Of a stretch of DNA of 64,000 nucleotides, positions 57,790 to 64,000 are shown piece after piece (within the stretch, counting starts at the first letter, position 1; each line of letters begins with the position of its first letter). The DNA lies in the NCBI GenBank assembly GCA_000004695.1, contig CM000154.2, positions 2,720,001-2,784,000 on the forward strand. Reading direction: 5' to 3'. The translations under genes and the position numbers were made by a program. Below the pieces are notes generated by a model. The model did no database searches. It was not told the origin of the DNA and saw nothing but the letters and a program-made list of their open reading frames with translations. The stretch is from Dictyostelium discoideum. Taxonomy: Eukaryota.

Positions 57790-58817
57790 ATGTTTTTTTT
57801 TTTTTTTTTTTTTTTTGTTGTGTTTATTTAATCTAAAAAAATAAAATAAAAAAATCAATTGGACAAGTCCCCTTATTTTTATTTATTTATTTTTTTAATT
57901 TAAATTAAATTCTTCATCTGTAATATAACGACATATAATGTGTTTCTATCTCTACATAATTCTAATACCTTGTCTAATTCAACACCTTAGCAATCTTTAT
58001 TGCTTCTATATAATTACACCTGAAATCATCCCAACTGATTTTATCTTTGTCTTCTTTACCATCATTTATCTCTTTTAACAGGTAATGTTCTAAATAATAT
58101 TGACATACTGCTACTAAATATACTTGTTCACCAATAAGTGCTGCATCTTGTATTAATTGTATCACTATTAAAACTTTCTTTGGGATTACTTACTCGAGTA
58201 CATTAACGTTTGCATTTGTTTTTCTAACTGTTCAATAGCGTATGAAAGAAAATAAGGAAAGTGAATTTTAAAAAAAAATTTGAATTAAAAATAAAAAAAA
58301 ATATAAAATAAAATAAAATAAAAAAATATTAAATAAAAAATAAATAAAATAAAAAATTTAATTTGATAAAAATAGAATTTCAAAATATTATTTATTTTTA
58401 ATTAAATTATTTATTTTTTTTTAATTAATTTTTTCTTATTTTGTTTAGTTCATCATTCAAGATCAGTTTCAAATCCAGTTTTTAAACTATCCTTTTGGTA
58501 TTACTATATCGTGTGATAAAATTATAAATAAATTAATATATTTTAAAAAAAAAGAAATAAATTAAAAAAACTTCAAGTGGAATTTACTATTTTTTTAAAT
58601 TACCAATAAAAATAATACCATCCCTAGTGTGTATTTTCATAGTTTTGGAATTTAATTTAAATAAATTTTTATTTTTTTTTTATTTTTTTTATTTTTTTTA
58701 TTTTTTATTTTAATTTAACTTGTTTGACTTCAAATTTAATTTTTCAATTTTTTTTTTATTTATTTTATTTTTTTTTTATTTTTTTTTTTTTTCATTTATT
58801 TTTTTTTTTTTTTTTCA

Positions 58818-59470
58818 ATGATAAACTGTTGTAGAATTGGTTCAAGGTTATTTAACACAAAAAATAAAATAATCCTTGGAACTTCTTTTAATAAATCAAT
58901 ATTAATTCCAACTATAAATAATAATAGTTATAATAATAAATTTATTTTTAATATTAAAAGAGATTATACAGTAAATAATAAAATGTCAGAAAGTGGTGCA
59001 AAAGCAGGCGCCACTGAAGAAAATGTAAGTATATAAATCTACATTTTTAATATAGATATTTTATGATATTAATATCATATTCCATTTCTTATTATTAATT
59101 ATAAAAGAATAGAATTGACCCAAAGGACACACTATTTGCAAAATTTGTTTCAGGTCAAATCCAAGTACCAAAAGTTTACGAGGATGAATATTGTATTGCA
59201 ATCAATGATATTAACCCACAAGCACCAGTACATATTTTAGTTATCCCAAAACTTGCCGTTGGTGGTGTTAGTGATGTTGCCAATGTTGATCTTGAAAAAT
59301 ACAAAGAAGCCATGGGTCATATCATGTCAAAAATTCATCATATCGCTTCTCTTAAAGGTGCTGATTCTTACAGATTGGTCATTAATGATGGTGTTTTAGG
59401 TCAACAATCTGTTAGATGGTTACATATTCATATCCTTGGTGGTAGACAAATGAATTGGCCACCAGGCTAA
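58818..59470 (+). CDS. HIT-family protein (HINT-like histidine triad nucleotide-binding protein), copy 1, with about 55-aa N-terminal extension; join(58818..59024,59108..59470)
   Basis: Exon 1 is MINCCRIGSRLFNTKNKIILGTSFNKSILIPTINNNSYNNKFIFNIKRDYTVNNK-MSESGAKAGATEEN|GTAAGT. Exon 2 follows AAAAG| with NRIDPKDTLFAKFVSGQIQVPKVYEDEYCIAINDINPQAPVHILVIPK...GADSYRLVINDGVLGQQSVRWLHIHILGGRQMNWPPG*. It carries the histidine triad HIHILGG and a C-terminus matching HINT1 ...HLHVLGGRQMHWPPG. The basic, hydroxylated N-extension resembles a mitochondrial presequence; this is an inference. Confidence 0.8.
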
Positions 59471-59633
59471 TTTCAATTTTCAAAGAAAAAAATAAAAAAA
59501 AAAAAATAAAAAAAAAAAAGGAATATAAAGTATTGCCAACTGAAATGAACACAAATTAAAACCATTAATAAACATAATTTTATTTTAATAAATCACACTA
59601 ATTAAATGACTTTTGCAATTCAAAATTTACCTT

Positions 59634-60110
59634 TTATTTTTTAAGTGATATTTTAGATATTTTTAAGGATTCTCCATTTGAAATGATTTCAATCCAAATC
59701 CCATCATCTTTTTCTTTTGATTTATAATTAAAATCATCTTCTGCAAAATGCTTTAATTTATTGTAGAAACCTATATTGGAACCAACTTCATCTCTTACTA
59801 GTAGCAATAAAGAAAACTTACTATTGGAACGTGTATAATAAAAAATATATCCTTTAGATAGATCATCTTTAACGGTTTTCATTTGAGATGGATTATTTAT
59901 CATTTTTCCTATAACATCATAGTACATATGGGATCCCGTATTTTTTGCCTGCAAAGCAAGGGTTTTTTCATTATACTTAATTACAAAATCACAACCATGT
60001 ATTTTTTCGTAGGCCTTGCCTATTTTTTCTACCACCACACCATCAACTCTTGACAAAGCAAGTGCTAAAAATCGGTAATACTTTCTTCATTTGGAAAACT
60101 TACTTCATTT
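59634..60110 (-). CDS. Hypothetical protein, partner gene of the HIT cassette, copy 1 (track ORF 59634..60056 plus 5' open frame); N-terminus frame-disrupted relative to copy 2
   Basis: The protein ...PNEESITDFLALALSRVDGVVVEKIGKAYEKIHGCDFVIKYNEKTLALQAK... is paralogous to copy 2 (MENFKINIGKLKSTGLEIDFPKEESITNFLALALQRFIEAKVQKVCKHFEAINGCDFIIYYKGKKLGLQAK...). In copy 1 the homologous start (ATGGACCAATTTAAAGAAAAT.., MDQFKENIKKQTKSK) is in a different frame and hits TGA. No splice rescues it. Confidence 0.4.
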
Positions 60111-60626
60111 GCTTTTTGTTTGCTTTTTTATATTTTCTTTAAATTGGTCCATTTGTTCAAAAAATTCTAAAATATAATCATTTTTGAAACAATATTTAAA
60201 TCTTCGTAAGAAAACCTAGTCGATATATAATATTAGTTTTTTTTTTTTTTTTTTTTTTTTTTTTTTTATATATTAATTTGACAAGTTACCTATTTTCTTC
60301 TTTATTTTTTTTTTCCATTTTTTTATTATTTGTTTTTTAATTTTTATAAAAAAAAAAAAACAGAAAGAGTGATCAGAAAAAAAAAATCAAAATATTTTTT
60401 ACGTCGTCCCCAAAAAAAAAGTCAAAAAAAATCAAATGCATTTTTTTTACAATACCCCAACAATTCCAACTTTTTTTTTTTTTTAAGCGCATTTTAATAC
60501 AAATAAATAATAAAAATAATTTAATAAAAATATATATTAATAAGTCACAACTACAAATTTAAAATGATTAATAATCTCTTATTATCTTTTGGAATTGATA
60601 AAAAACCAAAAAAACAATGGATAAAT

Positions 60627-63088: not shown

Positions 63089-63551
63089 ATGTCAGAAAGT
63101 GTAGGGAATGTAAGTATATAAATCTACATTTTTAATAAATTTATATTTATTAATACCATATTCCTTTTCTTATTATTAAATATAAAAGATAAGAATTGAC
63201 CCAAGGGATACAATATTTGCAAAAATTATTTCTGGTGCAATCCCATCAAAAAAATTTTACGATGATGAATATTGTATTGCAATCGAAGATATTAACCCAC
63301 AAGCACCAGTACATCTTTTAGTTATTCCAAAACTTGCCGTTGGTGGTCTTAGTGATGTCGCCAATGTTGACCTTGAAAAATACAAAGAATCTATGGGTCA
63401 TATCATGTCAAAAATTCATCATATCGCTTCTCTTAAAGGTGCTGATTCTTACAGATTGGTCATTAATGAAGGTGTTTTAGGTCAACAATCTGTTAGATGG
63501 TTACATATTCATATCCTTGGTGGTAGACAAATGAATTGGCCACCAGGCTAA
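63089..63551 (+). CDS. HIT-family protein (HINT-like), copy 2, lacking the N-terminal extension; join(63089..63109,63189..63551), 127 aa
   Basis: Exon 1 is MSESVGN|GTAAGT. Exon 2 follows ATAAAAG| with IRIDPRDTIFAKIISGAIPSKKFYDDEYCIAIEDINPQAPVHLLVIPK...VINEGVLGQQSVRWLHIHILGGRQMNWPPG*. It is about 88% identical to copy 1 at protein level. The position homologous to copy 1's upstream ATG (58818) reads ATT here (62913..62915: ..TTAATTATAAACTGTTGTAGAATTGG), so the extension cannot be translated from that site. Confidence 0.75.
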
Positions 63552-63652
63552 TTTCAATTAAAGAATTCTTCATTGTACCTATTTAAACCTTTTACTAATA
63601 ATAGTAAAGAAAATTCACCATTGGCACGTACATAATAAAAAAATATATCCTT

Positions 63653-63952
63653 TTAATGGATCACTAGCAACAATTTCACTTTGAGATAGGTTTTTTTTAA
63701 TTTTTTTAAAATAGTATTGTATGTTTGGCATCCAATAGTTTTTGCCTGCAAACCAAGTTTTTTTCCTTTATAATAAATAATAAAATCACAACCATTGATT
63801 GCTTCGAAGTGCTTGCACACTTTTTGTACCTTTGCTTCTATAAATCTTTGCAAAGCTAATGCTAAAAAATTGGTAATGCTTTCTTCTTTTGGAAAATCTA
63901 TTTCTAGTCCAGTTGATTTTAGTTTTCCTATATTTATTTTAAAATTTTCCAT
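63653..63952 (-). CDS. Hypothetical protein, partner gene of the HIT cassette, copy 2 (99 aa; C-terminally truncated by a frameshift relative to copy 1)
   Basis: Track ORF MENFKINIGKLKSTGLEIDFPKEESITNFLALALQRFIEAKVQKVCKHFEAINGCDFIIYYKGKKLGLQAKTIGCQTYNTILKKLKKTYLKVKLLLVIH*. DNA downstream of the stop (about 63600..63650) still aligns with copy 1's ...KGYIFYYTRSNSKFSLL region (59800..59870) but in another frame. Homopolymer T6 in copy 1 (59846..59851, reading AAAAAA on the coding minus strand) is T7 in copy 2 (63639..63645). Confidence 0.4.
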   Translation of the reverse strand: MENFKINIGKLKSTGLEIDFPKEESITNFLALALQRFIEAKVQKVCKHFEAINGCDFIIYYKGKKLGLQAKTIGCQTYNTILKKLKKTYLKVKLLLVIH

Positions 63953-64000
63953 TCGATAGAAAAATTGTAAAACTGATGAAAGAAGGAAACATTTTTTTAA

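Follow-up and report, generated by a model that had tools for sequence, protein, structure and literature searches.

A tandem HINT gene pair in Dictyostelium discoideum and the plausible one-sided split of a dual-start gene through loss of an upstream start codon

Vertebrates have two HINT proteins, the cytosolic and nuclear HINT1 and the mitochondrial HINT2, one of which carries an N-terminal leader in front of a similar core of ~115 residues. Dual-targeted genes with two in-frame starts, used through leaky scanning or alternative transcription starts and subfunctionalised once the gene was duplicated, are likewise familiar, as in the yeast and plant aminoacyl-tRNA synthetases and in fumarase-type cases. 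That proteins are relocalised when a presequence start is gained or lost is well known as a principle. Here we describe a tandem pair of HINT genes on chromosome 5 of Dictyostelium discoideum AX4, contained in a stretch of 64,000 nucleotides (GCA_000004695.1, contig CM000154.2, positions 2,720,001 to 2,784,000, forward strand; hereafter the window, from whose first base coordinates are counted), and we document the anatomy and ancestry of the locus, the loss of a start codon from one copy and the patterns of selection on both. The reading that we favour, with a probability of about 60%, is that a dual-start HINT gene was duplicated, that copy 1 (DDB_G0289439) keeps both starts and that copy 2 (pkiA, DDB_G0289391), which lacks the upstream start (ATG1), makes the short form only. 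As such, the pair is a modest event of a known kind; no paper discussing DDB_G0289439 and pkiA as a pair was found, and a look-up for their localisation met the gene identifiers nowhere in searchable text.

Judged by similarity, both copies belong to the HINT branch of the HIT superfamily. They match Pfam PF01230 (HIT) with 73.9 bits (copy 1) and 76.6 bits (copy 2) against a cut-off of 21.5, and among solved structures human HINT2, which is named as mitochondrial, and HINT1 come closest (E about 1e-27 to 2e-25, residues 20-134). At the histidine triad both read W-L-H-I-H-I-L, so that the second His, the nucleophile, and the third are kept and Trp stands in place of the first, a replacement that is found in all 18 dictyostelid sequences aligned, does not distinguish the two copies and sets dictyostelid HINTs apart from the vertebrate proteins. 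Over the corresponding codons (59429-59449 and 63510-63530), the dictyostelid SVRW-L-H-I-H-IL stands against SVYH-L-H-I-H-VL in human HINT1 and HINT2. The Dictyostelium pair differs from HINT1/HINT2 also in being independent and far younger, having arisen within the D. discoideum species complex, and in that its long gene, whose import is so far a prediction, additionally retains a strong internal start.

A preliminary description of the window had proposed a duplicated cassette that holds a HINT-like gene and a small minus-strand partner gene. The duplication is real, since direct repeats lie where they were placed and the copies can be aligned base by base, but its dimensions had to be revised. 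The direct repeats fall into five families with spacings of 3797-4094 bp; the start-to-start spacing of the two HINT units is 4,094 bp instead of 4.3 kb, and the cassette, thought to measure ~1.5 kb, is part of a repeat unit of ~4.09 kb that comprises HINT, an orphan partner open reading frame (ORF) and a Yippee-Mis18 gene without its 5' third. Unit A (58740-61877) holds HINT copy 1, partner copy 1 and a truncated Yippee-Mis18 copy, and its counterpart, unit B, runs from 62824 past the window end. In self-blastn, run on a longer locus that is identical to the window here and reaches beyond its end, three blocks align between them: 58740-59487 with 62824-63565 (86% identity), 59792-60289 with 63589-64090 (72%), and 60471-61877 with about 64329-65953 (84-95%). 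As a sequence control, we used a second, independent D. discoideum assembly (ACTFIT), which shows 0 differences from AX4 in the 5,401 bp from 58600 to 64000. Sequencing error is therefore ruled out as the source of the features described below, including the altered start codon of pkiA, the frameshifts and the homopolymer sites.

HINT copy 1 (58818-59470, plus strand; identified by its gene model, protein matches and the Pfam HIT match) has ATG1 at 58818 and an internal in-frame ATG (ATG2) at 58983, with exon 1 at 58818-59024, an intron at 59025-59107 and exon 2 at 59108-59470. Translation from ATG1 gives 189 amino acids, identical to KAM9947705.1, and from ATG2 134 amino acids, identical to XP_636243.1/Q54HJ0; newer strain annotations begin the gene at ATG1, the AX4 reference model at ATG2, without the 55 conserved upstream codons. 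This 55-codon N-terminal extension (58818-58982, plus strand), which had been described as presequence-like from the window alone, proves on the basis of stops, composition and conservation to be in frame, coding and ancestral. Its frame contains 0 stops, compared with 6 and 15 in the other two, and is open in only 0.16% of composition-matched shuffles (P = 0.0016), and the indels in leader alignments are all multiples of 3. The leader holds 8 Lys and Arg, 1 Asp or Glu and 8 Ser and Thr residues, and nothing acidic precedes position 49, where the first such residue stands.

The wider comparison covered the same locus in eight close relatives and in D. purpureum, besides ACTFIT; the single-copy genomes include those labelled ACTFIZ, ACTFIW and ACTFIY, two D. 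citrinum strains, D. dimigraforme, D. firmibasis and D. purpureum. Two HINT genes at this locus are found in D. discoideum only, and each of the nine other dictyostelid genomes has one. The ancestral gene order is Pescadillo (minus), an orphan gene that we call U (minus), HINT (plus), partner (minus), a Yippee-Mis18 gene of ~500 amino acids (minus), a gene of ~716 amino acids (plus) and a PA14 gene. Among the loci compared, only those of the D. discoideum complex contain U and the partner. All nine single-copy relatives have two in-frame ATGs and an open leader of 49-63 residues, and the HINT models of P. violaceum and C. fasciculata have leaders of ~60 residues. In D. purpureum, the model DICPUDRAFT_77557 (135 amino acids) begins at the second ATG, and an unannotated in-frame ATG lies 49 codons upstream; the extra leader (GL871016.1, positions 2854-3000 of the fetched locus) reads MLKYCCNNLVFRSSRYFCTNLLNTQSAFKPSLLINNNNLNRFFTTKNNK and has no acidic residue. 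Leaders from 11 taxa are barely alignable between genera and nevertheless contain 5-9 Lys and Arg, 0-2 Asp and Glu and many Ser, Thr and Asn residues, so that the basic, acid-poor pattern of copy 1 recurs in 10 orthologues, the non-alignable ones included. A block IKR(D/E)Y↓(T/S) is conserved, with NRFF↓T in D. purpureum, both of which fit the pattern of a processing-peptidase site with Arg at -3, and the maximum 11-residue hydrophobic moment is 0.51-0.76, a range that comes without a calibrated threshold. A leader of this kind, ending in R-x-Y↓T/S, is most likely a cleavable mitochondrial presequence.

The two starts differ in context. At -3 of ATG1 none of the ten sequences has an A (nine have T and D. 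purpureum has C), whereas ATG2, an internal Met conserved across Dictyostelia, has the context AAAATG in every sequence examined; the interval between them is free of ATG in any frame in 10/10 sequences. With dN/dS (the ratio of non-synonymous to synonymous substitution rates) of 0.05-0.27 against relatives, which serve as background lineages, copy 1 is the unchanged ancestral dual-start gene under purifying selection.

HINT copy 2, pkiA (63089-63551, plus strand; Q23921/XP_636246.1, 127 amino acids), was placed by its gene model, an exact protein match and the Pfam HIT match, and consists of exon 1 at 63089-63109, an intron at 63110-63188 and exon 2 at 63189-63551. Its exon 1 is 7 codons shorter than that of copy 1. 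Upstream of it lies a relic of the leader (62912-63088, plus strand), recognised by alignment and confirmed in the second assembly, in which ATT replaces ATG1. The replacement had been noticed before and holds, at 62912-62914, one base off the 62913 first given for it; as ACTFIT is identical here, it is no sequencing error. The relic differs from the copy-1 leader by in-frame indels only (12 and 24 nt), its frame has 0 stops, the two other frames having 4 and 20, and it holds no ATG. ATT occurs in pkiA alone: the HINT gene of ACTFIW, which is pkiA-like in the first part of exon 2 (exon 2a), still has ATG1 and a full exon 1. Since ACTFIW shares 10 derived exon-2a sites with pkiA and yet keeps ATG1, the loss of the start is specific to D. 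discoideum and late.

The two copies are 92.6% identical in the DNA and 87% in the protein of exon 2, and their whole short proteins are 83% identical. dN/dS is 0.86 for pkiA against copy 1, 0.78 against ACTFIW and 1.25 for exon 2a against ACTFIW, and nearly all the changes of pkiA lie within the opening 33 codons of exon 2; these ratios indicate that the pkiA protein has evolved under strongly relaxed or adaptive conditions. In the last 160 bp of exon 2, copy 1 and pkiA differ at 1 site and ACTFIW at 6, and the near-identity of the two copies there points to gene conversion. pkiA is expressed, as judged from a microarray match (PMC2920877).

From these observations, we propose the following history. 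The one HINT gene of the dictyostelids was copied, along with neighbouring genes, in a segmental duplication that is specific to this lineage and has a period of 4.09 kb. The gene in its ancestral form, with a weak ATG1 and a strong ATG2, would probably have supplied both mitochondrial and cytosolic HINT, either by leaky scanning or because transcription began at varying positions immediately behind the T-run that precedes ATG1. After the duplication, copy 1 retained the whole arrangement under purifying selection. pkiA lost ATG1 (ATG to ATT) and 7 exon-1 codons, its HIT domain took up many amino-acid changes in the N-terminal half, and gene conversion homogenised its last 160 bp with those of copy 1; the short enzyme, presumably cytosolic, would thus be all that it can make. 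Import into mitochondria, initiation at both starts and the place of the pkiA protein in the cell are all predicted here from sequence features. The likeness to dual-start genes extends to the weak first AUG, the strong second AUG, the AUG-free interval and the presequence-like leader, and to the loss of the first AUG from one daughter copy, pkiA. The relatives show that the single-copy ancestor had both starts, and the upstream start is gone from one daughter; the short form, however, has not been lost from the other, as copy 1 has ATG2 in its AAAATG context behind an ATG-free interval. One of the two reciprocal losses expected of such genes is therefore seen, at codons whose use is itself predicted, and because copy 1 keeps both starts, the partition is one-sided, with pkiA specialised. 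A mitochondrial-versus-cytosolic pair, as the preliminary description had it, accordingly stands in so far as the leader is presequence-like and ATG1 is lost from pkiA only, but not as a reciprocal partition; in this amended form it is a plausible reading of the sequences. The lineage-specific duplication itself is genuine and well defined, and through upstream start loss it gives a plausible pair of a HINT2-like and a HINT1-like gene.

Several observations weigh against this proposal, and three alternatives to it were considered. A T-run usually precedes Dictyostelium transcription starts, and as a long one stops 2 nt short of ATG1, many of the transcripts might begin past that codon. Together with the poor context of ATG1, the AX4 annotation that begins copy 1 at ATG2 and a nucleotide divergence in the extension about equal to that of the intron, this would suit the view that the upstream region is 5' untranslated sequence in both copies, that both make the same short cytosolic HINT and that the change from ATG to ATT had no consequence. 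It is the least probable of the alternatives, a slim chance at best, as ATG1 and an open leader have been kept in nine relatives and two more distant genera despite near-complete sequence turnover, with indels confined to multiples of 3, a uniformly basic, acid-poor composition, and an openness that few shuffles and neither of the other frames can match. Also unfavourable is the state of the pkiA relic, which is still open and begins with AUU, a near-cognate codon, such that a small amount of long isoform could persist; a newer annotation (of ACTFIT) even joins the relic to upstream exons in a pkiA model of 307 amino acids, with an acceptor at TGTTGTAG, followed by AATTGG, near 62929. If pkiA made a long isoform through the AUU at 62912 or through such splicing, there would be no split in location. 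Besides the stop-free relic and its in-frame indels, this view can draw on the 1996 PkiA record AAB03669.1 (172 amino acids; window 62930-63551), which begins MVQDYLTQKNK, ends HIHIPWW and reads through the relic, so that the region was in the sequenced clone. But with only ~8 substitutions between relic and copy 1, an open relic frame is expected by chance. The 1996 record, compared with both assemblies, lacks a T, which creates its ATG, has an extra A and ends in a garbled 3' sequence, differences that are probably old sequencing errors, and the fused model requires a weak GTTTGG donor, an intron of ~614 nt and exons from a frameshifted pseudogene fragment of another gene; we reject it as a prediction artefact and regard a long pkiA product as improbable.

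The remaining difficulty is that a dN/dS near 1 would also fit a copy drifting towards loss. On that account pkiA would be unspecialised, redundant and relaxed, and the loss of ATG1 would be its first disabling change, to which one may add the ratio of 1.25 in exon 2a, the deletion of 7 exon-1 codons and the deletion of the 3' spacer and terminator region. Of the alternatives to the start-loss proposal, this is the one that we take most seriously, and still consider unlikely. The reading frame, the splice sites, the catalytic H-x-H and the C-terminal GGRQMNWPPG are all intact, gene conversion holds the catalytic half identical to copy 1, pkiA is not only expressed but regulated, and the only HINT at the ACTFIW locus evolves similarly fast at the same codons.

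If the start-loss proposal is true, the locus offers a clean natural experiment of recent date in an organism that is genetically tractable: a dual-compartment gene is seen shortly after it was duplicated, when one copy has already been deprived of its import leader and evolves fast. The analysis also corrects two reference models, that of DDB_G0289439, which leaves out 55 conserved codons, and that of D. purpureum DICPUDRAFT_77557, which leaves out 49, and it would tell which Dictyostelium gene is the HINT2-like, mitochondrial one for functional studies.

The ancestry of the two units can be traced through shared derived sites. In flanking genes, ACTFIW is the closest relative of D. discoideum (3-5% divergence), followed by ACTFIY and ACTFIZ. 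Copy B and ACTFIW have derived sites in common that copy A lacks, 10 in HINT exon 2a and 22 in the partner, and copy A groups with ACTFIY and ACTFIZ, while derived sites exclusive to A and B number 0-1 per segment; a young duplication in place followed by divergence is thereby ruled out. In the Yippee-Mis18 exon, synonymous divergence is ~0.08-0.10 between A and either B or ACTFIW, 0.03 between B and ACTFIW and 0.11-0.14 against ACTFIY, an order that places the split from ACTFIY and ACTFIZ first, the A/B split next and the split between D. discoideum and ACTFIW last. The A/B split therefore predates that of D. discoideum from its closest sampled relative. Two histories fit the nine genomes compared, and of these we favour an old duplication that later collapsed in ACTFIW through recombination between the repeats. 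Alternatively, A and B could be two old HINT-partner lineages of the species complex (A-type in ACTFIY, ACTFIZ and an isolate represented by a Logan contig, B-type in ACTFIW) that were captured in tandem by template-switching repair, perhaps in a hybrid zygote, with the orphan partner gene as the driver. This gene evolves near-neutrally or under diversification and has been killed repeatedly, and its place beside an unrelated GNAT gene in one isolate suggests that it may be mobile, but we consider this origin doubtful.

The partner gene had been portrayed as a co-duplicated gene in mid-decay, with a frameshifted N-terminus in copy 1 and a C-terminus truncated by a T6/T7 homopolymer slip in copy 2. 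That the two copies were broken by different lesions, and where copy 1 was hit, is borne out. Partner copy 1, an A-type orphan ORF and now a pseudogene (59634-60152, minus strand), was analysed by three-frame translation and alignment to the intact A-type ORF of SRR24091724; 2 nt are missing near 60118 and 1 nt near 60072 (a T6-to-T5 run), and a premature TGA follows after 15 codons, the remaining frame of 140 codons being open to the stop at 59634. Copy 2, a B-type pseudogene (63552-63952, minus strand) treated in the same way with the intact ACTFIW orthologue, did not suffer a single slip but two frameshifts, a 1-nt deletion near 63707 and a 1-nt insertion near 63643, and a 3' deletion that removed its last ~40 codons and the intergenic spacer, so that it abuts the pkiA stop codon. 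Decay as a sequel of duplication is not what the relatives indicate. The partner is intact in ACTFIZ, ACTFIW and the Logan contig, and single-copy ACTFIY shares with the two D. discoideum copies the state of being frameshifted; no partner could be detected in D. citrinum, D. dimigraforme, D. firmibasis and D. purpureum. Its homologues number four among 5.8 billion proteins, all from the D. discoideum species complex, and dN/dS between intact copies is 0.9-1.3. As the gene evolves near-neutrally and is also broken where it is single-copy, its decay follows a birth-and-death pattern and is no consequence of the duplication. Profile and fold searches with the ORF gave no family or fold; a PD-(D/E)xK nuclease fold, considered on account of an E...D...(E/Q)xK motif pattern, was set aside, since it would have required a profile or fold match besides. 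The Logan contig (SRR24091724, 1-1049) carries its intact A-type ORF, whose DNA identity to window 59630-60200 is 88.5%. A GNAT-like acetyltransferase ORF, foreign to the HINT locus, lies 30 bp away from it; either the genomic context differs there or the contig is chimeric. Compared with copy 1, its partner shows 36.5 non-synonymous and 2.5 synonymous differences.

The 3' end of unit A is formed by the 5'-truncated Yippee-Mis18 copy (60778-61877, minus strand), located with tblastn and the ACTFIT gene table, which comprises the 3' exon (60778-61371) and part of the middle of the gene. It keeps an open 3' exon of 197 codons, is annotated in ACTFIT as a gene of 245 amino acids, and was assigned to its family through the Pfam Yippee-Mis18 match of the D. 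purpureum orthologue. Its dN/dS against the full copy, 0.35, lies above the 0.13-0.22 between orthologues and yet is not neutral. Between this copy and unit B, self-blastn and tblastn identified a filler of 459 bp (61879-62337, plus strand), a frameshifted fragment from the 3' half of the ~716-amino-acid gene two genes downstream, with sharp junctions at 61877/61879 and between 62337 and 62338. Its first 89 bp (61879-61967) are 100% identical to the parent gene, ~6.9 kb downstream, and the next 363 bp (61975-62337) only 85% identical, with indels, a difference that suggests a recent short conversion tract.

Gene U, an intact, coiled-coil-like gene of 244 amino acids in ACTFIW, is split in D. 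discoideum. As located with tblastn and blastn against ACTFIW, its 3' part (amino acids 85-244, frameshifted; 57898-58239, minus strand) is stranded upstream of HINT copy 1, and its 5' end (~amino acids 1-48 by DNA homology; 62338-62480, minus strand) follows the filler, the tblastn alignment covering amino acids 1-52 and reaching back to 62325; codons ~53-84 are gone entirely. From the 5' end of U, ancestral intergenic DNA leads into pkiA. Because pkiA thus sits in its ancestral context on both sides, either unit A and the filler were inserted into U, or unit A is the first tandem unit and has since lost its copy of the 5' end of U. An AT-rich stretch of 487 bp (58240-58726) separates the U remnant from the copy-1 promoter, in the place where U codons 1-84 would be; no counterpart of it was seen in the relatives compared, and a source search gave low-complexity matches only. 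The arrangement resembles tandem duplications formed by template switching during replication or repair, in its head-to-tail repeat, its 459-bp insert from a nearby gene, its blunt junctions with 0-2 nt of ambiguity and the truncated or split genes at its ends; it differs from them in that the mechanism is here deduced from the junctions and in the 487-bp stretch, which matched no source.

Elsewhere in the window, inverted repeats of 166 bp, 98% identical and ~1.4 kb apart, lie at 48861-49026 and 50411-50575, in a region where relatives carry two minus-strand genes of ~147 amino acids. Long (AAT)n/(ATT)n tracts at 54212-54362 and 60625-60775, at a distance of 6.3 kb, make up an inverted-repeat pair of 150 nt, which consists of simple-sequence coding repeats (poly-Asn) and is no structured element.

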